A stretch of 64,000 bases of DNA from an uncultured Acidobacteriota bacterium (GTDB lineage: Bacteria; Acidobacteriota; Thermoanaerobaculia; UBA5066). A program made the translations under genes and the position numbers. The first letter of the stretch is position 1, and each line of letters opens with the position of its first letter. A model generated the notes under the pieces. It ran no database searches and was not told where the DNA came from. It saw only the letters and a list, made by a program, of their open reading frames with translations. Shown in pieces: positions 1 to 16,500 of this stretch. The stretch lies in contig CAVRJB010000019.1 of assembly GCA_963721385.1 (NCBI GenBank), positions 901,513 to 965,512 of the forward strand, given 5' to 3'.

Positions 1-3880
<3,880 letters not shown>

Positions 3881-3918
3881 CGCGAGGTGCCGCCGCGCGG
3901 CCTGCGTATCATTCGTCG

Positions 3919-5043
3919 ATGCCGGACGACAGGCGGACGGGAGCGGGGGGATCGCCCGTCTGGTGGACGATCGACCCGGCCATCGCCCGGGCCGCGACGC
4001 TTCCGGCCGAGGTCTACGCCGACCCGCGCTGGCTGGAAGCTGCCCGGGAGAAAGTGTTCGCCCGCACCTGGCATCTCATCGGCGACGCCGACCAGCTCCT
4101 CGAGCCGGGGCAGTGTCTCCCGGTGACGCTCCTGCCGGGCTTCCTCGACGAGCCGCTCCTCCTGACGCGCGGCCGGGACGACAGGGTTCACCTCCTTTCC
4201 AACGTCTGCACTCACCGGGGGGCGCTGCTTTGCGAAGGGCCGGCGGTGCAGCCCGGACTCCGATGCCGGTATCACGGCCGCCGCTTCGGGCTCGACGGCC
4301 GCTTCCTGTCCATGCCCGAGTTCGAGGGCGCCGAGGGCTTTCCATCACCGGCAGACGACCTCCCGCAGGTCGCGTTCGCATCCCTCGGGAAGCTGATCTT
4401 CGCCTCGCTCGCCCCGGCCTTCCCGTTCGAGGAGCTGGTCGCGGAGATGACGGCGCGCGTCGGGTGGCTCCCGATCGGCGATGCCGTGCTCGACCCGTCC
4501 CGGTCGCGGGACTACGACGTTCCGGCGAACTGGGCGCTCTACTGCGACAACTACCTCGAAGGGCTCCACATTCCGTTCGTCCACGCCGCCCTGCTCGAAG
4601 CCCTCGATTTCGGCGCGTACCGGACCGAGGTCTACCGGTGGGCGAGCCTCCAGGTCGGAGCGGCGTCCGGCGACGACGCCACTTTCGACTTCCCTCCGTC
4701 TTCGCCGGACCACGGCCGGCGGATCGCCGCCTACTACTGGTGGTTCTTTCCCGACACGATGATCAACGTCTACCCCTGGGGACTGTCGGTCAACCTGGTG
4801 CAGCCCCTCGCGCCGGACCGGACGCGCGTGGCGTACAGGACGTACGTCTGGGAGCCGGGGCTTCTCGGCCTGGGGGCCAGCGCCGACCTGGACCGGGTCG
4901 AACGCGAGGACGAAGCCGTGGTCGAAAGCGTCCAGCGGGGCGTGCGGTCGCGCCTCTACCGGCGCGGCCGCTACTCGCCGAAGCACGAGGCCGGCGTCCA
5001 CCATTTCCACCGGCTCCTGACCCGCTTCCTCGCGGCTGAATGA
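3919..5043 (+). CDS. Rieske [2Fe-2S] non-heme iron oxygenase alpha-subunit-like protein (choline/betaine/carnitine monooxygenase-like class)
   Basis: C-terminal 374 aa of ORF 3358..5043, starting at ATG 3919 (MPDDRR...). Rieske motif CTHRG...x17...CRYHGRRF. The ring-hydroxylating-oxygenase catalytic domain follows (NWALYCDNYLEGLHIPFVH). ATGA overlap with the next gene. Confidence 0.8.
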   Translation: MPDDRRTGAGGSPVWWTIDPAIARAATLPAEVYADPRWLEAAREKVFARTWHLIGDADQLLEPGQCLPVTLLPGFLDEPLLLTRGRDDRVHLLSNVCTHRGALLCEGPAVQPGLRCRYHGRRFGLDGRFLSMPEFEGAEGFPSPADDLPQVAFASLGKLIFASLAPAFPFEELVAEMTARVGWLPIGDAVLDPSRSRDYDVPANWALYCDNYLEGLHIPFVHAALLEALDFGAYRTEVYRWASLQVGAASGDDATFDFPPSSPDHGRRIAAYYWWFFPDTMINVYPWGLSVNLVQPLAPDRTRVAYRTYVWEPGLLGLGASADLDRVEREDEAVVESVQRGVRSRLYRRGRYSPKHEAGVHHFHRLLTRFLAAE

Positions 5044-6437
5044 CGAGGCCCGAAGAGGGAAGCGCCCGCCTCGAGAGGCGGCTCGGGGCGTGGGACGGGG
5101 CGCTCCTGACGGTCGGCTCGGTCGTCGGGACGGGGATCTTCCTGACGACGGGCGACATCGCGAAGGCCCTGCCTCACCCGGGCCTGATCCTCCTGGTCTG
5201 GCTGCTCGGGGGGCTCTTCACGCTCGCCGGTGCCCTGAGCTACGCCGAGCTGGGAGTCCTCTTTCCGCGGGCCGGCGGGATCTACCACTTCCTCAAGGAG
5301 GCCTTCGGCCCGTTCGCCGGCTTCCTGTACGGATGGACTTCTTTCGTCGTCATCATGTCCGGCGGCATCGCGGCGATCGCCGTCGGGTTCGGGGAATACC
5401 TCGGCGCGTTCGTCCCGTTCTTCGCGGGCGGGCGGGTTCTCGTCGAGCTTCCCTTCGGCCCCTTCATCTGGAGACTCGAAGGACCGCAGATCGCCGGTGC
5501 GATCGCGATCCTGCTTCTCACGCTGCTCAACCACGCAGGGCTCCGTGAGGGAGTGGCGGTGCAGAACGTTCTCACCGTCGTGAAGGGCGGCGCGCTCCTC
5601 GTCCTGGCCCTGCTCGGGCTTTTCGGAACGGAGTCCGTCTGGCGGGCGGTGACCGCTCCCGTCGGCCTCTCGCCCCGGGCCTTGCTGGCCGGACTCGCGA
5701 GCGCGATGGTCGCGGCGCTCTGGACGTACGACGGGTGGTATGCGCTGACGCTGTCGGCGGGCGAGGTGCGCCGTCCGGCGCGCGACCTGCCCCGGGGCCT
5801 CGTGGGCGGGACGGCGGCCGTCGTCGGGCTCTATCTGCTCGTGAACGTTGCGTACCTTCGGGCCCTTCCGATGAATCGCCTGGCCGGGATGACCCGCGTC
5901 GGCGAAGGGGCCGCCGAGGCTCTCCTCGGGCCCTCGGGCGGCCGGCTCGTCGCCGCGCTGATCGCGGTCTCGATGCTGGGCTGCCTCGCGGCGACGATCC
6001 TCTACGCCTCCCGTCTCTACGTTCCGATGGCCGAAGACGGGGTTTTCTTCGAGGCCGCGGGGCGCGTCGACCCGGCAAGGCACACGCCCGCCGGAGCTCT
6101 CTGGTTGCAGGGCGTCTGGAGCGCGCTTCTGGCCGTGACCGGCGGCTACCGCGCGCTCTACACGTGGGTGACGTTTGCGGCGGTGCTGTTCCACGTGGCC
6201 ACGTGCATGGCGCTCTTCGTCCTCCGGCGCACCCGGCCAGACGCCGAACGCCCCTACCGCGCGTGGGGCTATCCCGTCGTCCCGGTGCTGTTCCTCCTCG
6301 CAAGTCTCGCCCTCACGGTGGCCACGCTCTTCCAGAACCCGGTCGAATCGGGCCTGGGCCTGATCGTCGTGGCCTCGGGCGTGCCGGCGTGGCTCTGGTG
6401 GCGGAGGAGAAAGGGCGTCGGGTTCCGGGGCGCTTGA
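5040..6437 (+). CDS. APC-superfamily amino acid/organocation permease
   Basis: ORF 5040..6437, 465 aa, about 12 hydrophobic segments. N-terminal APC signature region LGAWDGALLTVGSVVGTGIFLTTGDIA...LSYAELGVLFPRAGGIYHFL. Confidence 0.85.
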   Translation: MTRPEEGSARLERRLGAWDGALLTVGSVVGTGIFLTTGDIAKALPHPGLILLVWLLGGLFTLAGALSYAELGVLFPRAGGIYHFLKEAFGPFAGFLYGWTSFVVIMSGGIAAIAVGFGEYLGAFVPFFAGGRVLVELPFGPFIWRLEGPQIAGAIAILLLTLLNHAGLREGVAVQNVLTVVKGGALLVLALLGLFGTESVWRAVTAPVGLSPRALLAGLASAMVAALWTYDGWYALTLSAGEVRRPARDLPRGLVGGTAAVVGLYLLVNVAYLRALPMNRLAGMTRVGEGAAEALLGPSGGRLVAALIAVSMLGCLAATILYASRLYVPMAEDGVFFEAAGRVDPARHTPAGALWLQGVWSALLAVTGGYRALYTWVTFAAVLFHVATCMALFVLRRTRPDAERPYRAWGYPVVPVLFLLASLALTVATLFQNPVESGLGLIVVASGVPAWLWWRRRKGVGFRGA

Positions 6438-6492
6438 CACGCCGAGAGGCGGCAATCAATAGTCGTCGAAAAAGAGAGGGCGGAGTCCTCAC

Positions 6493-7137
6493 ATGTACGC
6501 CGAGATGAAACAGGCGGTCGTCCTCGGGGACGCGGCCCGGGCGAGGCAGCTCGCCGAAGGCATCGTCGACGGCGAAGGCGACCTCGTCGCGGCGATCGAA
6601 CAGGGCTTTGCCGCCGGGATCCGCCGGGTGGGAGATCTTTGGGAGGAGGGAGAGTATTTCCTCCCCGAGCTCGTCCAGGGCGCCGAGGCCATGAAGGCCG
6701 CCATGTCGGTTCTCCAGCCCGCGCTTCGCAAGCTCCACGGCGGGCAGGCCTCGAAAGGCCGGGTGGTCATCGGAACGGTTCAGGGAGACCTCCACGACAT
6801 CGGGAAGACCCTCGTCGCGACTCTTCTGTCGGCGGGAGGTTTCGAGGTCGACGACCTCGGCAGCGACGTGCCTGTCGATCGATTCCTCGCACGGGCCAAG
6901 GAAAACGGCGCCGACATCATTGCGGCCTCGGCGCTCCTGACCACCACCATGCCGGCCCAGAAGGCGATCGCCGCGGCCATCCCGTCCCTGGGGCTCACCC
7001 GGCGGCCCCGGCTCCTCATCGGCGGCGCGCCGACCACGGCGGCCTGGGCGACGGAGATCGGCGCGGCCTGGGCGGAAAACGCCCTTCGCGCCGTCGCGGT
7101 CGCCGAAGCGCTGGTGGGCGCCGCAAGGCACGCCTGA
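6493..7137 (+). CDS. Cobalamin (corrinoid)-binding protein, MtbC/MtgC/MetH-B12-domain type
   Basis: ORF 6493..7137, 214 aa. B12-binding cap helix bundle followed by a Rossmann domain with the DxHxxG motif (GDLHDIGKTLV), SxL (ASALLTTTM) and GG (LLIGGAP). Confidence 0.85.
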   Translation: MYAEMKQAVVLGDAARARQLAEGIVDGEGDLVAAIEQGFAAGIRRVGDLWEEGEYFLPELVQGAEAMKAAMSVLQPALRKLHGGQASKGRVVIGTVQGDLHDIGKTLVATLLSAGGFEVDDLGSDVPVDRFLARAKENGADIIAASALLTTTMPAQKAIAAAIPSLGLTRRPRLLIGGAPTTAAWATEIGAAWAENALRAVAVAEALVGAARHA

Positions 7138-7158
7138 GCGAGTCTCTTACAGAGACGC

Positions 7159-8049
7159 ATGAACGCCTTCGCCGAGCGCCTGCGCCGCCGCGAAACGACC
7201 CTGCTGGACGGGGGCCTCGGCAGCCTGCTCATCGCTCGGGGCCTCCCCGGGGGCGCGGCGCCCGAGTCGTGGGTCCTTTCGCGGCCCGCGGAGGTCAGCC
7301 GCGCGCACGCCGACTACGTCGCCGCCGGGAGCGACGCCGTACACGCGGCGACCTTCGGGGCGAACGCGATTCGCCTGGCGCGGTTCTCTCTCGCCGACCG
7401 GTGCGAGGTTCTCAACGCGGACGCCGTTCGGCTGGCTCGTGACTCCGGCGCACGCTTCGTCCTTGCGGACGTCGGTCCCACGGGCGAGTACCTCCCTCCG
7501 GTCGGGGCGGCCGACCCGCGGGCCTTTCGGGAAGCGTTCCTTCAGCAGGGGAGGGCGCTGGCCGCCGCCGCGCCGGACGCCCTCCACGTCGAGACGATGT
7601 CGGACCTCCGCGAGGCCCTGGTCGCGCTGGAGGCCCTGTTGGAAGCCGCGCCGGCGATTCCCGTCATGGTGTCGCTGACCTTCGAGCGGAAGAAGCGCGG
7701 TTTCTTCACGATCATGGGGGATCCGCTGGCGGGAGCGCTCCGGGCGCTTGCAGGCGCGGGGGCCGCCGCTGTCGGCGCGAACTGCACGCTCGCGAGCGGC
7801 GAGATGCGGCGGCTCGCCGAGGAGGCCCGCGGAGCGGTAGATCTGCCGCTCGTCATCCAGCCCAATGCCGGGTCGCCGGAGACCCGGGAGGGCTCGGTTT
7901 ACTACTCGCAGGCGCCCGACGCCTTCGCCGACGACATGGCTCTGGTCGCCTCCCTCGGCGTCGAGCTGGTCGGCGGATGCTGTGGAACCGATCCGCGCTT
8001 CATCCGGGCTCTCAGGAGCCGCCTCGTGTCGACGGGACCTCGCGCGTGA
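7159..8049 (+). CDS. Homocysteine S-methyltransferase-domain protein (MetH Hcy-binding module-like, zinc thiol methyltransferase)
   Basis: ORF 7159..8049, 296 aa. LLDGGLGSLL start, HADYVAAGSDAV, the zinc-ligand cysteines in GANCTL and GGCCGTDP are all present. Confidence 0.8.
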   Translation: MNAFAERLRRRETTLLDGGLGSLLIARGLPGGAAPESWVLSRPAEVSRAHADYVAAGSDAVHAATFGANAIRLARFSLADRCEVLNADAVRLARDSGARFVLADVGPTGEYLPPVGAADPRAFREAFLQQGRALAAAAPDALHVETMSDLREALVALEALLEAAPAIPVMVSLTFERKKRGFFTIMGDPLAGALRALAGAGAAAVGANCTLASGEMRRLAEEARGAVDLPLVIQPNAGSPETREGSVYYSQAPDAFADDMALVASLGVELVGGCCGTDPRFIRALRSRLVSTGPRA

Positions 8050-8108
8050 CCGGGACGCGCACGCGCGGCCCGACGCCGCCGGCGGCTGTGGCGTCCGCAG
8101 GGCCTCCC

Positions 8109-8780
8109 ATGATCGTCGAAAGGCTTCGACTCTCGATTCGGGAGAGAGAGGTCCTGCACTTTCTCGGCTACCCGGCAGGGCGGCGTCCTCCGGCGCGACT
8201 CGAGCCCCTCCTCGAGGGGACTCTTCACGAGGCGAGAAGGCTGGCGGCGGCGCGCGGCGCCTTCCGGACGTTTCCGGTCTCCTCGGCCGCCGAGGTCGGC
8301 CTCCCGGCGGAGGAGGCCGACGGGCTCGTTCTCGGCCTCGTCACCGCGGGAGGCGGGATCGAGCAACGCGTGACGGAGCTGCTCGGCCGGGGAGAAGCTG
8401 CCCGCGCCCTTCTGCTGGATGCCGCCGGGAGCGCCGCCGCGGAAGAAGCCGCCCACCGGCTGAGCGTCCGGGTCGTCGGCGGAAGGACGAGCGAGGGGGC
8501 CGACGTCGGCTGCCGGGTCAGCCCCGGATACGGCCGCTGGCCCCTTTCCGCGCAGGAAGCGCTCTTCGCGCGCCTCCCTCACGACGCGGTGGGCGTCTCG
8601 CTGAATCCTTCCATGATGATGGTCCCGCGAAAGTCGATCTCCTTCGCCCTCTGGATCGGCGCGAAAGGCGCGCCGAGATCGGGGCTCTCCGGATGCGACA
8701 CGTGCGGCCTTCCCCAGTGCCGCTACCGCCGGCCCGCCGGAGGCGGGGCATTGCGTTCTTCCCGCGAGGTGACGAGCTGA
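8109..8780 (+). CDS. Vitamin-B12-dependent methionine synthase activation-domain-like protein
   Basis: Part of ORF 7977..8780 from ATG 8109 (MIVERLRLSIREREVLHFLGY...). GYGRWPLSAQEALFARL...VGVSLNPSMMMVPRKSISFALWIG resembles the standalone activation/reactivation domain family (from memory). C-terminal Cys cluster CDTCGLPQCRYR. Confidence 0.6.
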   Translation: MIVERLRLSIREREVLHFLGYPAGRRPPARLEPLLEGTLHEARRLAAARGAFRTFPVSSAAEVGLPAEEADGLVLGLVTAGGGIEQRVTELLGRGEAARALLLDAAGSAAAEEAAHRLSVRVVGGRTSEGADVGCRVSPGYGRWPLSAQEALFARLPHDAVGVSLNPSMMMVPRKSISFALWIGAKGAPRSGLSGCDTCGLPQCRYRRPAGGGALRSSREVTS

Positions 8781-10242
8781 TGGCACTGCAACTGAGACCC
8801 ACCGTCTCCCTGTTCTCTTCCGACGACGTGGAGACCGTCGTCCGAGAGGCGATCAGCGTCCTTTCCCAAACCGGGGTCCTCGTCGAGAACGCACGACGGC
8901 CAGGTTCTTCTGAAAGGAGGGGGAGCTTCGGAGGCGGGCGGCCGCTTCAGGATTCCGGAGGCCATGGCTCGCGGGGCGCTCGCGACCGTTCCGCCGCGCA
9001 TCGGGGTCTTCGACCGGGAGGGCGCTCCCGCGATGGACCTCGGCGGAGATCGCGTTCACTTCGATCCCGGCTCCGCGGCCATCCACCTCTTCGACGCCCG
9101 CGACGGGCCGGCGCCGCGCGATCGGGACCGATGACGTCGTCCGGTTCGCCCGCCTCGTCGACGGCCTGCCGAACTACGCCGCCCAGTCGACGGCGCTGAC
9201 GCCGGGCGACGTCCCCGGCGAGGTCGCGGACCGGTACCGGCTCTACCTGATCCTCAGGAGCGCCGTGAAGCCTGTCGTCACCGGCACGTTCCGGAAGGAC
9301 GGCTTCGCCCCCATGCGCGAGATGCTCCTCGCCGTGCGCGGGAGCGACTCGGAGCTGAAGCGCCGTCCCCTCGCCATTTTCGACTGTTGTCCGAGCCCCC
9401 CGCTGAAGTGGAGCGACCTGACCTGCCAGGCCCTCGTCGACTGCGCCCGCTCCGGGATCCCCGCCGAGCTGGTCTCCATGCCGCTGACCGGCGCGACCTC
9501 GCCGGTCACCCTCCGCGAGGCCATCGTCCAGCAGTGCGCGGAGAACCTGAGCGGCGTCGTCATCCACCAGCTGGCGGGCCCCGGCTCGCCGATCGTCTGG
9601 GGCGGCTCGCCTGCCGCCGTCGACATGCGCCACGGCACGACCCCGATGGGCGCCGTGGAGACGATGATGATCAACCTCGGGTCGTCGCAGGTGGGAAAGC
9701 GGCTCGGCCTGCCGACGCACGCCTACATGGGGCTGTCGGACTCGAAGTGCCCCGACTATCAGGCGGGGCTCGAATCCGGGGTCGGATCCATCCTCGCGGC
9801 GCTGGCCGGCATCAACGTCGTCTCCGGCCCCGGAATGCTCGACTTCGAGATCTGCCAGTCGTTCGAGAAGCTCCTCCTCGATCACGATGCCTGCGGCATG
9901 GCGCTGCGGCTCGTCCGCGGGATCGAGCACCGTGAGGAGGGCGCCGTCGACCTGATCCGGCAGGTCGTCGAATCGACCGAGTTCCTCTCGCACCCTCACA
10001 CGCGGAAGCACTGGCGGGAGGAGCTGACCATCGCGTCGCCGCTGGTGGCGCGGGACACCTACGGCGACTGGGAGGCCCGGGGCGCTCCCCGGGCGGACGA
10101 GGTGGCCGCGAAGGAGGTCGAGCGCCGGCTCTCGAAGTCCCCGCCCCGCCCGCCGGCGGCCGACGTGACCCGCGCTCTCGACGAGATCATGCAGCGCGAG
10201 GCCCGGGCCGCCGGCCTCTCAGAGCTGCCCGCCGTCGAGTGA
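8780..10242 (+). CDS. MttB-superfamily (trimethylamine methyltransferase family) substrate:corrinoid methyltransferase, non-pyrrolysine type; 2 apparent +1 frameshifts
   Basis: ATG 8780 overlaps the previous stop (TGATG). MALQLRPTVSLFSSDDVETVVREAISVLSQTGVLVEN, then (+1 at ~8891) [68 protein letters not shown], then (+1 at ~9096) ATGRRRAIGTDDVVRFARLVDGLPNYAAQSTALTPGDVP...; the last frame is ORF 9265..10242. No in-frame TAG; the stops met are TGA in shifted frames. Confidence 0.8.
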
Positions 10243-10592
10243 GGTTCGGTCAGCCCGAGCCTATCGACTGGCGGAAGATCAACCCCCCGGCGGCGGCGTA
10301 CTCGACCTGATGCTTCAGGGAAAGCCCGCGCGGGGCCGCCGAGGAACCGAGAGCAAGAACATGGGGTCAATCCAGCCGACTTTCCTCCACTTTCATTCTG
10401 GGTGGCCGAAGAAGCCGTGCTGTCGCTGAGCGTTTCGATTCATCTGCATCATGCGCTCGTAGGATCTTGGAGACATTCTGTCTTTAACTAGACGTACTCG
10501 CGACGAAAGGAACGCTCTTGCTCAACAAGGGGGGCCTCGTTAGCCGAATGGCGATAGCCGTTCGACGAAAGAGGTGGAGAACTCGCTAATTC

Positions 10593-13500
10593 ATGCAGAT
10601 GCAGACGAGTACCAATGACGTCCCGGCGCTTCGAGTCTCAGCTCTTGGACTGGCGTCTCTCTCTGCTCTTATCGGCACCCTCGTGCCGACGCGCAACGCT
10701 CAAACCTGCGTCAAGCACTCCGACTTCGAGGGCTGCGGCCTGCCAGCCGCGAGCAGTGCTTCCCGGTCCTGGCAGGGCCGTCCTTCCTGGCTCCAAGACC
10801 CTGGCGGTGCCCGGACCTGGCAGGATACCGCCGGGCGCCGCAGAGCCCGCTCAAGCACGTGCGAGCCCCCCCTCGGCAACTCCATCCCGAACTGCTGCGG
10901 GGGCCGGCCGCCCAGCGACAGTCCCGCCCCGACGATTCTCGCTTCGCACCGCGGGGCACGCGGCTTGCTCGTCGACTACGACGCCCCCAACTTGTACTGC
11001 ACCGACGGTGGGGATTGGCCCCCCTTCTTCACCTGCACCAACGACCCCATGGTGGACGGCGATCACCTGTCCATCAGCGATTCCGGAGGGCCATCGAGTT
11101 CGCCTTGCATCTACTTCGAGCACGGCACGTGGGACACGGGCATCGACATCCCGTGCGGAACGACGAGAAGCTATCAGGCATCGATCAGCTACATCAAGGC
11201 CGGAGGTTCGTTGACGGCCAGCACGACGCTGGCGCCCCTTCACCGGCACCTGCCCGGATCGCCAAATGCTGCCCTTTCACCGGGGCGTCGGGCAGCCGAT
11301 CAACGTCGGCTCGGGCGACGTCATGGCCACCGAGCGCACTCTTCAGCGTCGGTCAGGGCCCTCTGTCGCTGCCGTTCTCGCTCACGTACCACAGCTCGGT
11401 CCCCATGTTCCCCGGGCTCGTCGAGCTCGCCGGTGGGGGTCGGATGGACGCATCCGTACGCCCAGACCCTCAGGCCCGAGGACGCCACCAACAACCGCCT
11501 CTATCACATCACGGCCGGGGGCTACGAGTCGGAGTACGCGCGGATCGCCCCCGACACAACCTGGATCGCCATCAACCCGGGAGAGCTTCGGGGCGCGATC
11601 AAGCAGGTGGGCTCGGAGTACCAGCTCACGAACCTCGAGGGCACCGTGACGCATTTCGACGTGGCCACGGGAAACTGGCTGGCCACCACCGACCGCTGGG
11701 GGAACAGCATCACCGGGACTTACACGGGCGGCCAGCTCACGACGATCACCGACTCGGAGGGGCGACAGATCCAGCTCGTCTACGGGAGCGGGCAGGTGAC
11801 GATTACTCTGCCCGACGGCAATGTCTGGAAGCTCGTCCTGGGCGCCAGCAACACCCTCACGCAGATTTTCGATCCCATGCACTTGGGGGCAGCTCCCTGG
11901 CACAGCTACGCCTACCAGAATGACCACCTGGGAGCCCTGCGCCTGCTCACCTCGATCACGGACGATGCGGGCCAACAGCTCGAGGGACACACCTACGACT
12001 CCGTGACCGACCGTGGGCTGACCTCCTCGCAGGCTGGCGGCACGCGGAGCAACGTCAGCATCGTCTACAACACTCCGACGACTCGCACCGTCACTCACAC
12101 GATCGACGGCTCCACACAGGAGACGACCACATTCACAATGGCCTACCTCGTCGGCCGTTGGCTTCCTACGCAGATCTCGGGCCCGTGCGCCTCCTGCGGC
12201 GGCTCGGACGCCGACCTTCAGCTCTTCACGTACGACTACTCCAACCATGTGATCGACAAGAAGAACGGCTCGGGGGCGGAGCAGTCCGAGACCCAGTACA
12301 CCTACGACGGCAACGGAATGATGCTCACGCGGAAAGAGGCCGTGGGCAAACCCGAGCAGCAGACGACGACTTATGCCTACGGCTATGCCTCCGGAACCCC
12401 GTCGGGCGGCGCCCCCTGGCCCAGTTTTGTCACTTCCGTGACTCAGTCCTCGGTCGCCAAGGCCTTCCAGAGCAAGGTGACGACGTACGCCTGGAATGCC
12501 GCTGGAACGCCCGAGACCACGCTGACGACCTCTGCGTCCGGCTACCTGAAGAACACTGACACCTCGCCGACCGTCTACACGACGACGACGATCTTCGATT
12601 CTCACCATCGCCAGACCGAGACGGACGGCCCCGCGGCCAACCAGAGGACCACCTTCTCGTACTTCGCCGACGCGGACGCCACACTGAATCGGCGCGGGCG
12701 TCTCCAGCGAACATCGGTCTACACCTCGGCCACGGCTCACCTGGACACGCAGTACGACAACTACGACGTTTTCGGAACGGCGAAGAAGGTCCTGGATGCC
12801 AATGGCGTCGAGACCGACCGCGTGACGGACGCCGTGGGCCGGGTCACCAGCGTAACCTCCCTCCATGTCACGGGCGATCCCAATGAGACGCTCGACTACA
12901 CCACCGGCTACGCGTACGACACCCGGGACCGCCTCACGAAGGTGACCCTGCCGCTCGGCAACCAGCTCCAGTACAAATACGAAGACGGTACGAATCGGCT
13001 GACCGACACGATTCGGGCCGATGCCTCGGGGATCCAGCGGGAGAGGCTGCACCTGACGCTGAACGTCATCGGAGGCAAGACCCTGGAAGAGGCCCAGAGC
13101 TGTGACGCGCCCGCCACCACCTGCGCCGCCTGGACGACCCGGCGAAGCGACAGCTTCAGCTACGACTCGCACAACAGGCTTTCTGCCATGACCCACCCCG
13201 ATGCCACGCACCTGAACTACACGTACGACAGCCGAGGCAACCTCCTGACCGTCCAGGACGAGCGGCACACCGCCGCGAACACGGTCTATGCCTATGACTT
13301 CCTGAACCGGCTCAAGACGGTCACCCAGCGCCAGACGCTCGTCGTCGGCCCGGACGTGGTCACGCAGTACTCCTACGACGTCCAGGACAACCTCACTGTC
13401 GTGACGGATCCGAACAGCAACGTCACGACCTACGCGTACGACGACTTCCGGCGGATGCAGATGCAGACGAGCCCCGTCACCGGTGTCACGAGCTACGCCT

Positions 13501-16500
13501 ACGACCCGGCGGGGAACCTGCTGACCTCCACCGACGCCAACGCGGCCACCACGACCCGCGTTTACGACGCGGCCAACCGTGTCACGGGCGCCAGCTCCGC
13601 CCGGACGGGCTTCACGACCGAGGCCGTGACCTGGACCTATGACAGCTCCACCGCGGGCGCCTACGGGCTGGGGCGTCTCGCCACGATGGCGGACCCCTCG
13701 GGGTCGACCACGTACGCCTACGAGCGGCGCGGGCTCATGCGGTCCGAGGGGCGGAGCGTCCAGGGGAACGCCTACTCCCTCGCCTACGGCTACGACGCGA
13801 ACGGAAACCGCAGCAAGGTCACGTATCCATCCGGGATGCTGGTCAACTACGCCTTCGACTTCGCCGACCGGCCGCTGTCGGCCTCCTCGGGAACGACGAC
13901 GTTCGTCTCCGCGGCGGCCTACGCCCCATTCGGGCCGGAGACGCAGATCACGTACGGTAACGGCACGACGAAGACAGTGACCTATGACCAGCGGTACCGG
14001 CCCGCCGAGAACAAGCTCACCGCCGGGGCCAATACCCTGGCCGACTACGTCTACCAGAAAGACGCCACCAGCAACATCATCCAGATCCACGACGCGACGA
14101 ATGCCGCCTACAACCGTGACATCGGCTACGACGACCTCAACCGCCTGACCACGGCCAACACCGGATCCTCCCTTTGGGGCACGGCCACAGGCAACAGCTA
14201 CACCTACGACAGCATGGGGAACGTCCTGAGCCTGACGCTCGGGACGGCCCGGACGGCCACCTTCACATACGTCCAGAACGCCTCGTCCAAGAACCTGCCG
14301 AAGCTGGCCTCCGTCACGGAGACCGGCCCCGGGACGCGGACCGTTGCCTACGACGCCGCGGCCAACGAAAGCTCGGTCGGTACCGGGACCTTCAGCTATT
14401 CCACCCGCAACCTCCTGGCCACCGGCGACGGGAACGCGTACACGTACGACGGGCGCGGGCTGCGCACGGTGACCACGGTGACGGGCAGCCCGACGCCCAC
14501 GCCCACTCCCACGCCGACGTTGACACCCACCTCGACCCCAACGGCCACACCCACCTCAACTCCGACGGCCACCCCGACGGCGGCTGCTACCGCCACGCCG
14601 ACAGTAACGCCGACGGTGACGCCGACGCGGACGCCGTCAATCACGCCGAGCCGCACGCCGACAGCGACGATTTCGGCCGACGCCGAGCCGCAACGCCGAC
14701 GGTGAACCCGACCGACGCGACGCCGTCGAACACGCCGAGCCGCACGCCGACGGCGACGATTTCGTCGCACGCCGACCGTACACGCCGACGCGTAACTCTG
14801 CGCGGACGCGCGACGCCGTCGCACACACGCCGACGCCGGTCGACGCCGACGGTGACTCTGACGCGGACGCCGTCGAACACGCCGAGTCGCACCCCGACAG
14901 CGACGATTTCGTCCACGCCGACCGTCACGCCGACGGCGACCCTGACTCGGACTCCGTCGAACACGCCGAGTCGGACCCCAACAGCGACGATTTCGTCCAC
15001 GCCGACCGTCACGCCGACGGTGACGCTGACGCGGACGGCGTCGAACACGCCGAGTCGCACCCCGACATCGACGATTTCGGCCACGCCGATCGCACGCCGA
15101 CGGCGACGCTGACTCGGACGCCGTCGAACACGCCGAGTCGGACGCCAACAGCGACGATTTCGTCCACGCCGACCGTAACGCCGACGGTGACGCTGACGCG
15201 GACGGCGTCGAACACGCCGAGCCGCACGCCGACGGCGACGCTGACGCGAACGCCGTCGCACACGCCGAGCCGTCACGCCGACGGTGACGCCGACGCGGAC
15301 GGCGTCGAACACGCCGAGCCGCACGCCGACGGCGACGATTTCGTCCACGCCGAGCCGTCACGCCGACGGTGACGCTCGACGCGGACGGCGTCGAACACGC
15401 CGAGCCGCACGCCGACGGCGACGATTTCGGCCACGCCGAGCCGCACGCCGACGGTGACGCTGACGCGGACGGCGTCGAACACGCCGAGCCGCACGCCGAC
15501 AGCGACGATTTCGTCCACGCCGACCGTCACGCCGACGGTGACGCTGACGCGGACGGCGTCGAACACGCCGAGCCGCACGCCGACGGCAACGATTTCGTCC
15601 ACGCCGACCGTAACGCCGACGGTGACGCTGACGCGGACGGCGTCGAACACGCCGAGCCGCACACCGACGGCGACGATTTCGTCCACGCCGACCGTCACGC
15701 CGACGGTGACGCTGACGCGGACACCGTCGAACACGCCGAGCCGCACGCCGACGGCGACGATTTCGGCCACGCCGAGCCGTACGCCGACGGTGACCCTGAC
15801 ACGGACTCCGTCGAATACGCCGAGTCGCACGCCGACGGTGCCGACGCCACGCCGTCGAACACGCCGAGCCGCACACCGACGGCGACGATTTCGGCCACGC
15901 CGACGCGTGACGCCGACGGTGACCCTGACGCCGACCGTGACCCCGACGCGGACGGTGACCCCGACGCGGACACCGTCAAACACGCCGAGCCGCACGCCGA
16001 CGGTGCCGACGCCGACGCCGACGAACACGCCGAGCCGCACGCCGACGGCGACGATTTCGGCCACGCCGACGCGTGACGCCGACGGTGACCCTGACGCCGA
16101 CCGTGACCCCGACGCGGACGGTGACCCCGACGCGGACACCGTCGAACACGCCGAGCCGCACGCCTACGGTGCCGACGCCTACGCCGACGAACACGCCGAG
16201 CCGTACGCCGACGGCCACCCCCACGGGCGGCCTGCAGACGATCACGAGCTTCTCGCCCACCAGCGGGGCCACGACCGGGACGACTGCTGAGACGACGCCG
16301 GCGGGAACCGGCACCAGCTCCGGAAGCTTCACCCGGGACGGTCTGATCCCCCGCGAGCCGGCAGATCTCTGGTACGCGCAGGGAAGGCCGGGAGGGCGGA
16401 GCCCGGGGATAGACCTGGTTTCGCGACGCTCGGGCCCGATCGGCCAGCCGGGGCTCTCCGGGTCAGCAGCCTCGCCGCCGCGGCGATAGACTTCGAGGGC

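Follow-up and report, generated by a model that had tools for sequence, protein, structure and literature searches.

A corrinoid, homocysteine methyltransferase and MttB-family gene cassette with a proposed role in folate-independent methionine synthesis in uncultured Acidobacteriota

We analyzed a 64,000-nucleotide stretch of DNA (the window; G000:C19:901513-965512, where G000 is the label for the window's own genome) from an uncultured member of the Acidobacteriota. The source is a 3.81-Mb metagenome-assembled genome (MAG) of 20 contigs that is 86.6% complete, and the window has a G+C content of about 70%. Six genes are encoded on the + strand at window positions 3919-10242. Four of them (6493-10242), for a corrinoid protein, a homocysteine S-methyltransferase (HcyMT), a MetH activation-like protein and an MttB-family methyltransferase, make up a core cassette that we propose to be involved in methionine synthesis; its closest named homologs are in Thermoanaerobaculia MAGs. 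The original prediction, made from the letters of the sequence, had described six tightly spaced genes on one strand. All are present and five are intact open reading frames (ORFs) where it placed them, but the sixth, mttB, is broken by two insertions that it did not mention.

The first core gene (6493-7137, +) encodes a free-standing corrinoid (cobalamin-binding) protein of 214 amino acids. It has the features that define the family, namely a B12-binding_2 cap and a B12-binding Rossmann domain (PF02607 and PF02310), along with the DxHxxG, SxL and GG motifs (DLHDIG at 99, SALL at 146, GG at 177). The top model is the MtgC-type NF047995 (199.6 bits), and the B12 region of MetH scores 130 bits. 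The second gene (7159-8049, +) encodes an HcyMT of the MetH type (296 amino acids; PF02574, 3.3e-57, 195 bits). All three zinc-ligand cysteines are present (GANC at 206, GGCCG at 272), and the protein is predicted to bind zinc. The protein has 1210 homologs at E<=1e-20, and its nearest solved relative is the homocysteine (Hcy) domain of T. maritima MetH (1Q7M, 130 bits); scores are much lower with MmuM-type enzymes (62 bits) and with BHMT (54 bits). Direct, BHMT-like use of betaine by the Hcy module was considered and rejected, as BHMT is the weakest match among the solved relatives. We propose that this enzyme is a methyl-corrinoid:homocysteine methyltransferase.

The third gene (8046-8780, +) has a GTG start, overlaps the HcyMT gene by GTGA and encodes a stand-alone protein of 244 amino acids with a C-terminal CxxCxxxxC motif. 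It had been predicted to resemble the activation domain of MetH. On its own the protein falls short of this, with 22.1 bits against PF02965 (cut-off 25), but the resemblance is borne out at the level of the family. A profile of 19 family members matches TM0269 (1J6R) at 3e-20 over nearly the full length, and the activation domains of E. coli and Thermus MetH at 1e-5 to 3e-4. The ortholog in G157 (labels of the form G### denote surveyed acidobacterial genomes, and L### fetched loci) clears the Pfam cut-off with 32.6 bits. SPGYG and P-x-K-S-I/V-S/T (PRKSIS) are invariant in the family and CxxCxxxxC is usual; the first two are motifs that we take to resemble those of MetH. Judged by these profiles, the protein is a homolog of the MetH activation domain and of TM0269, and we propose that it serves as a reductive reactivation factor.

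The fourth gene (8780-10242, +), joined to the third by a TGATG overlap, is predicted to encode a non-pyrrolysine member of the MttB superfamily of about 486 amino acids. Read through, it matches PF06253 at 1.6e-76 and 257.8 bits (cut-off 25), and the intact C-terminal part alone reaches 201 bits (1.5e-59). An amber codon is absent, as had been predicted: the pyrrolysine-equivalent codon is CTG (Leu, 9733-9735), and 58 of the 62 MttB orthologs tabulated also have Leu there. The score against TIGR02369, the model for the pyrrolysine-type trimethylamine methyltransferase MttB, is 336 bits, below the cut-off of 525. A match to Rfam PYLIS_3, the pyrrolysine insertion element of mttB (9733-9832, +), is under threshold (26.8 bits; the gathering score is 38). 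It begins exactly at the Leu codon and most likely reflects residual coding-sequence homology rather than a functional element. The gene is not a single ORF in this assembly. Two +1 frame corrections are needed, near 8890 (frame 2 to 0) and at 9096-9100 (frame 0 to 1), and the longest intact ORF is 9265-10242 (325 amino acids). The breaks are taken to be assembly errors, on grounds given below. We propose that the product is a methyl-donor:corrinoid methyltransferase.

To place the cassette in a wider context, we searched 250 acidobacterial genomes with a completeness of 90% or more, plus the window's own genome (251 genomes). An MttB match occurs in 61 of these and is a clear single-copy ortholog in 60 (at least 37% identity, compared with 25-33% for paralogs); about a quarter of the sampled Acidobacteriota hold an ortholog of the cassette MttB. 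A set of 64 loci was assembled from the window, four relatives and 59 loci of the phylum survey. The MttB ortholog is accompanied by the corrinoid protein in 53 of them, by HcyMT in 47 and by the activation-like protein in about 44. A scan of other phyla, with one genome per species, found relatives of this MttB clade in at least 582 species representatives. Of the best 80 of these loci, 60 include the corrinoid gene, 40 the HcyMT gene and 48 the activation-like gene. These 80 derive from Thermoanaerobaculia, Myxococcota, Omnitrophota, Krumholzibacteriota, Aminicenantes, Ignavibacteria, Zixibacteria, Spirochaetales, Phycisphaerales and two Asgard MAGs. Loci reached through homologs of the Hcy module, from a close relative, from acidobacterial, Bacteroidota and deltaproteobacterial MAGs and from a JGI contig, all encode the corrinoid protein, HcyMT, a protein of about 220 amino acids and an intact MttB (482-494 amino acids).

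At least four gene orders were identified (Corr-HcyMT-Act-MttB, MttB-Act-Corr-HcyMT, HcyMT-MttB-Act and HcyMT-Corr-MttB, with Corr for the corrinoid and Act for the activation-like gene), the first being the commonest among the best 80 cross-phylum loci. Because the linkage outlasts rearrangement of the gene order, the core genes appear to be functionally coupled. Dozens of genomes across many phyla share this four-gene core, an arrangement far beyond chance that points to a conserved functional unit. Conservation of the gene adjacency, on which the original prediction had staked its case, is thus found in relatives and across phyla, with the order varying. De novo clustering of neighboring ORFs identified no further conserved partner (pterin enzyme, ferredoxin or enzyme for a demethylated product). 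Recurring beyond the core are only an APC permease, a RACo/RamA-type activator (with Fer2 and RACo domains) and a Cys/Met pyridoxal phosphate enzyme (PF01053), the last adjoining the cassette in 6 of the 64 loci. The RACo-type gene is found in 15 of the 64 loci, all without the activation-like gene, which it replaces there, and in 11 of the 80 cross-phylum loci. In a variant arrangement, (APC)-RACo-Corr-MttB(-Act), there is no adjacent Hcy module (L120, L136, L153-L155, L159, L163, L165, L168 and L171, mostly labeled Aminicenantes). Here the same MttB clade may feed another acceptor, or the Hcy module may be encoded elsewhere. In G157, MttB, the activation protein and HcyMT are encoded among arginine-biosynthesis genes and the corrinoid protein is encoded elsewhere.

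Some individual loci have features of their own. The closest named relative of the cassette, L094 (Thermoanaerobaculia MAG DATIFW010000253.1; MttB 88% identical), has an extra, divergently oriented HcyMT homolog 5' of its Corr-HcyMT-Act-MttB genes. Two Asgard contigs, L162 (Promethearchaeota, match at 6001-7398) and L166 (Thorarchaeota, match at 3033-4448), encode Corr-HcyMT-MttB with an MttB about 50% identical to the bacterial clade, which suggests inter-domain transfer or mis-binning.

The MetH-like modules of the cassette lack a pterin-binding partner. The only match to PF00809 in the window's genome is FolP (ILNVTPDSFSDGG), in agreement with what the original prediction would require. There is no match to PF01717 (MetE), and the full-length MetH model (TIGR02082) matches only the corrinoid and Hcy modules of the cassette and one PF02574 gene on contig C8, with no pterin region. 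No pterin-binding gene was recognized beside the cassette in the loci of the four relatives with Pfam calls, nor as a recurrent neighbor cluster. The genome encodes MetX and an MTHFR, and in its assembled part nothing other than the cassette is a candidate to catalyze the final step in methionine synthesis. The PF02574 gene on C8 (G000:C8:124884-125831, +; 181 bits) is stand-alone, no corrinoid neighbors were identified, and it may encode an MmuM-type enzyme that uses S-methylmethionine or S-adenosylmethionine (SAM) with homocysteine.

Relatives of the same family, order and class all have full-length MetH (1114-1683 bits), and those of the same family lack the cassette. In three same-family genomes (G229:C16:8694-14089, G091:C72 and G147:C1), which are the closest relatives that are complete, a second Hcy-domain gene, in an ORF of 624-926 amino acids, lies 1-2 kb from metH and is possibly a YitJ-like fusion of HcyMT and MTHFR. 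Neither the full-length metH nor this second gene was found in the window's genome. Across the survey, genomes with FolP only or without any PF00809 match account for 11 of the 60 carriers of the cassette MttB, compared with 12 of 190 non-carriers. Five of those 11 carriers also lack MetE (G000, G157, G022, G194 and G116). In G157 (98% complete), G022 and G194 the cassette is present, and lacking are MetH, MetE and MTHFR/MetF. The presence of MTHFR was considered as a discriminator for a methyl-tetrahydrofolate (methyl-THF) donor, with a mixed outcome: G000, G116 and G040 have the gene, and G157, G022 and G194 do not.

The MttB protein itself provides some indication of the donor. It scores 179 bits with the pyrrolysine-containing MttB 7XCL, 171 bits with D. 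hafniense MtgB (2QNE/9YCE) and 120 bits with 4YYC. In a quick maximum-likelihood tree with an undefined root, the 62 sequences of the cassette type group in a clade of their own (SH-aLRT 100), separate from 7XCL, 2QNE, 4YYC and 15 same-phylum paralogs. Mutagenesis and a ligand-bound structure established that MtgB binds glycine betaine via Y97 and F356 (cation-pi) and via R312 and H348 (carboxylate), and R312 is conserved in the characterized superfamily members, which have acidic quaternary-amine substrates (Picking et al., 2026; PMC13080624). We mapped these positions through the 2QNE alignment, where an offset of 16 restores Y, R, H and F; two conserved motifs, G-x-L and S-[YF]-E-K, keep the local alignment in register. 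The four positions (98, 313, 348 and 356 in L007 numbering) are S, H, S and E in the window's protein and in the ortholog of L007. In all 64 orthologs they are S/T, H/Q, S/A and E/I/L/V, and none of the MtgB residues is kept; the pocket is conserved in the clade and differs from that of MtgB. The controls behave as expected (YRHF in 2QNE, YRHG in 4YYC), and some same-phylum paralogs keep Y-R-H. Because the betaine-binding residues are replaced, a carboxylated betaine is unlikely to be the donor. The donor is likely to be an N-methylated, non-carboxylated compound, other than glycine betaine or carnitine. Methyl-THF is argued against by the absence of MTHFR from G157, G022 and G194.

We consider it reasonably probable, on comparative grounds, that the core is a four-protein, cobalamin-dependent relay that converts homocysteine to methionine without folate. 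The MttB-clade enzyme would transfer a methyl group from a small donor other than 5-methyl-THF onto Co(I) of the free-standing corrinoid protein, and the Hcy module of the MetH type, with its predicted zinc site, would pass it on to homocysteine. The TM0269-like activation protein would rescue oxidized Co(II), presumably through a SAM-dependent reductive methylation like that of MetH. The APC permease encoded upstream would probably import the donor, and the Rieske oxygenase would probably process the donor or the demethylated product. The domain identities, the conserved linkage, the lack of any pterin module and the separate MttB clade with its altered active-site residues are observed; which way the methyl group flows, what class of donor supplies it, the use of SAM in reactivation and the parts played by the permease and the Rieske protein are inferred. 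The corrinoid route leading directly to homocysteine, as originally predicted, is in line with this proposal; the betaine-type donor that was predicted with it is not.

Several observations weigh against such a relay. Half of the cross-phylum loci lack an adjacent Hcy module, especially those of the Aminicenantes type. The window's genome is incomplete, so a MetH or MetE could be present in the unassembled part. It has kept MTHFR, for which there is no obvious consumer if the cassette is independent of folate. About 49 of the 60 carrier genomes also have a second pterin domain, with full-length MetH verified in G055 and G115, and thus the cassette is usually accessory. MetX and MetA are absent in G157, G022, G194, G116 and G040, so the role of the cassette there may be confined to re-methylating homocysteine that is recycled. 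For this reason we did not retain the argument that the cassette is the sole biosynthetic synthase in all genomes where it stands alone. The argument is limited to the window's MAG, the only one of them with MetX and itself incomplete.

Neither the cluster type nor the idea of methionine synthesis is new. The same four-gene cluster was described in Ca. Electryoneota and diverse bacteria, with the hypothesis of a novel corrinoid-dependent methionine synthesis from an unknown methyl donor; its MttB clade was separate from MtgB and MttB, and a normal MetH was encoded alongside it in those organisms (Williams et al., 2022, Environ Microbiol; PMC9324843). The window (6493-10242) has the same four components (non-pyrrolysine MttB, HcyMT, corrinoid protein and activation protein) with no essential difference, and our tree and neighborhood survey agree with the published clade placement. 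Unlike those organisms, the window's genome shows no MetH. The original prediction had regarded the wiring as uncharacterized. Our full-text literature search found no characterization of the pterin-less cassette, yet the cluster and the hypothesis were already in print. The window is a further member of this type with a Rieske and permease extension. Added here are that extension, the loss of the betaine residues, the RACo variants and the genomes in which the cassette is the only recognizable methionine synthase.

Compared with MetH, and with the T. maritima pair of MetH and TM0269, the Hcy, B12 and activation modules are homologous, with the homology between the activation protein and TM0269 extending over the full length. 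The modules of the window are separate proteins, however, and the pterin module is absent, with an MttB-family TIM-barrel enzyme in its place. Methionine synthesis without a folate-binding domain is also a feature of MesA-D, folate-independent core methionine synthases, some of them corrinoid-fed, that Price et al. reportedly recognized in 2021 in genomes without MetH, MetE and sometimes MetF. Those enzymes are of the MetE type (PF01717), whereas the Hcy module of the window is of the MetH type (PF02574) and its genome has no PF01717 match. It is possible, although we regard it as rather doubtful, that the cassette represents a fifth, MetH-derived family of folate-independent methionine synthases. 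Some lineages (this MAG, G157, G022 and G194) would then have no other way to convert homocysteine to methionine, and the cassette would use a donor class new to the MttB superfamily (neither carboxylated betaine nor methyl-THF) in a conserved S-H/Q-S-E pocket.

The MtgBCDE system of Ruegeria pomeroyi and Phaeobacter inhibens also has separate MttB-family, corrinoid and Hcy-binding proteins. Genetics in R. pomeroyi showed that MtgC and the pterin protein MtgD are shared by two processes, the demethylation of glycine betaine, together with MtgB, and the synthesis of methionine, together with MtgE; reactivation involves RamA/DUF1638 (Mausz et al., 2025; PMC12478193). That system depends on the essential, pterin-binding MtgD to pass methyl groups to and from THF, whereas the window's locus and genome lack a pterin module. 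Reactivation there is of the RamA/RACo type, in contrast to the MetH-activation-type protein of the window, where no RACo is encoded at the locus, and MtgB differs from the window's MttB in its clade and in its betaine-binding residues, which are gone here. The MtgB/MtgC/MtgA system of Desulfitobacterium hafniense and MtcB, MtpB and MtyB of Eubacterium limosum likewise pair an MttB-superfamily enzyme with a cognate corrinoid protein. The acceptor enzyme in MtgB/MtgC/MtgA is a THF methyltransferase, and in the window it is an Hcy methyltransferase.

Two further genes precede the core. The first (3919-5043, +) encodes the alpha subunit of a Rieske [2Fe-2S] non-heme-iron oxygenase of 374 amino acids (PF00355 and PF00848). 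It has the motifs CTHRG...CRYHG at residues 97-119 and HIPFVH; the Rieske and corrinoid motifs and the HcyMT zinc cysteines are all present, as originally predicted. The top PDB relative is the carnitine monooxygenase CntA (6Y8J, 87 bits), followed by Stc2 (3VCA), and the top NCBIfam match is GbcA (75.7 bits, cut-off 670). We consider the protein related to the quaternary-amine oxygenases GbcA, CntA and Stc2, and a substrate assignment would go beyond these scores. The second gene (5040-6437, +), which overlaps the Rieske stop codon by ATGA, encodes an APC-superfamily permease of 465 amino acids (PF13520, 6.7e-55; 229 bits with the LAT-type TIGR00911). A homologous permease adjoins the cassette in 10 of the 64 and 7 of the 80 loci, in varied gene orders. 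It is an accessory gene that recurs with the MttB clade and a candidate importer of the methyl donor. The recurrence suggests an imported donor that is amino-acid-like or an organic cation. The Rieske gene is also accessory and outside the conserved core. It is in the same position in L006 and L010, and the L010 copy is just 37% identical. Only a minority of cassettes come with Rieske and permease genes.

These two genes bear on an alternative close to the original prediction. Here, the MttB homolog would demethylate a betaine-type quaternary amine (glycine betaine, carnitine or proline betaine) imported by the APC permease, the methyl group would go straight to homocysteine, and the Rieske oxygenase would strip further methyl groups. 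The characterized non-pyrrolysine enzymes MtgB, MtcB, MtpB and MtyB do use quaternary amines (PMC13080624, PMC12478193), and this reading is also consistent with the relationship of the Rieske protein to CntA, Stc2 and GbcA, the recurrence of a homologous permease with the MttB clade, and a GMC oxidoreductase near the cassette in L007. We nevertheless think it unlikely. All four MtgB glycine-betaine residues, R312 included, are replaced in 64 of 64 orthologs, while 4YYC and paralogs keep Y-R-H, and the clade is apart from MtgB and 4YYC. Most cassettes have no permease or Rieske neighbor, and the two Rieske genes compared share only that 37% identity. The predicted tie between the Rieske enzyme and quaternary-amine oxygenases agrees with its top solved relative, and the betaine-type donor is not supported.

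Alternatively, the cassette could be a split MetH in which the MttB homolog replaces the pterin module and draws its methyl group from 5-methyl-THF. The window's genome fits this arrangement, with MetX and MTHFR and without MetH, MetE or a pterin module, and the presence of full-length MetH without the cassette in same-family relatives looks like a replacement. Most cassettes have no adjoining transporter, and that of G157 is placed among arginine-biosynthesis genes. However, G157, G022 and G194 carry the cassette and have no MTHFR. Around 80% of carriers have a second pterin domain, found to be full-length MetH in the genomes checked, and this speaks for another donor. The window's genome is only 86.6% complete. 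We know of no member of the MttB superfamily that uses folate. Overall, we judge a methyl-THF-fed split MetH to be distinctly improbable.

It is very unlikely that the cluster is decaying, with real breaks in mttB and an inactive system in this organism. This reading draws on the presence of two breaks within 1.46 kb and on contig L006, a close relative of long-read style in which mttB and the Rieske gene are fragmented too. Alignment with the intact ortholog of 486 amino acids in L007 indicates that both breaks are single-base insertions, the second in a G run. We read them as assembly errors because other genes are broken likewise, because the L006 indels within the same gene differ in kind and place, because 61-88% identity to L007 holds across all three frame pieces, and because the mttB orthologs are intact in all 59 other surveyed genomes that carry one. 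The other five genes of the cluster are intact. Similarly broken are fadB (enoyl-CoA hydratase/3-hydroxyacyl-CoA dehydrogenase; 601-2756, - strand; G000:C19:902113-904268) and a gene for 344 amino acids 5' of the Rieske gene (about 2970-4030, +), each spread over three frames by tblastn against intact L006 proteins, which amounts to about six breaks in 10.5 kb of coding DNA. MTHFR (G000:C19:5989-6803) is split into three pieces. These pervasive single-base indels point to an assembly-quality problem in the window's genome.

In E. coli mmuP-mmuM, a permease is next to a PF02574 enzyme. An analogous reading, in which HcyMT acts alone on S-methylmethionine or SAM brought in by the APC protein and the corrinoid, MttB and activation proteins form a separate demethylation system, would suit the permease near a PF02574 enzyme and a family that includes corrinoid-independent members, but it is highly improbable. 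HcyMT scores far higher with the Hcy domain of MetH (130 bits) than with MmuM-type enzymes (62 bits). Its gene lies between the corrinoid and activation genes, to which it is translationally coupled, and the three occur together in dozens of loci that have no permease. The genome also has a second, separate PF02574 gene on C8.

If the folate-independent relay operates as proposed, many uncultured bacteria would make or regenerate methionine from a non-folate methyl donor. The lineages concerned would be Acidobacteriota, Myxococcota, Krumholzibacteriota, Aminicenantes, Omnitrophota, Ignavibacteria and some Asgard archaea. Genomes with the cassette may then be wrongly called methionine auxotrophs in metabolic reconstructions, and estimates of environmental B12 demand and the known substrate range of the MttB superfamily would be affected.

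Regulatory features were also sought. No riboswitch or RNA leader (SAM or B12) was identified at E<=1 in window positions 1-12000, or at the gathering score in nine related loci; the sole match was the PYLIS_3 one under threshold within mttB. Between the permease and the core is a sigma-70-like promoter match (TTGACA-18-AATAGT, 6434-6463, +), a consensus match only, with agreement at 10 of 12 positions and 0.2 expected in shuffles. Directly 3' of the cassette is a gene for a very large RHS/YD-repeat protein with a Thr/Pro-rich tail (10593-14705, +, and beyond).

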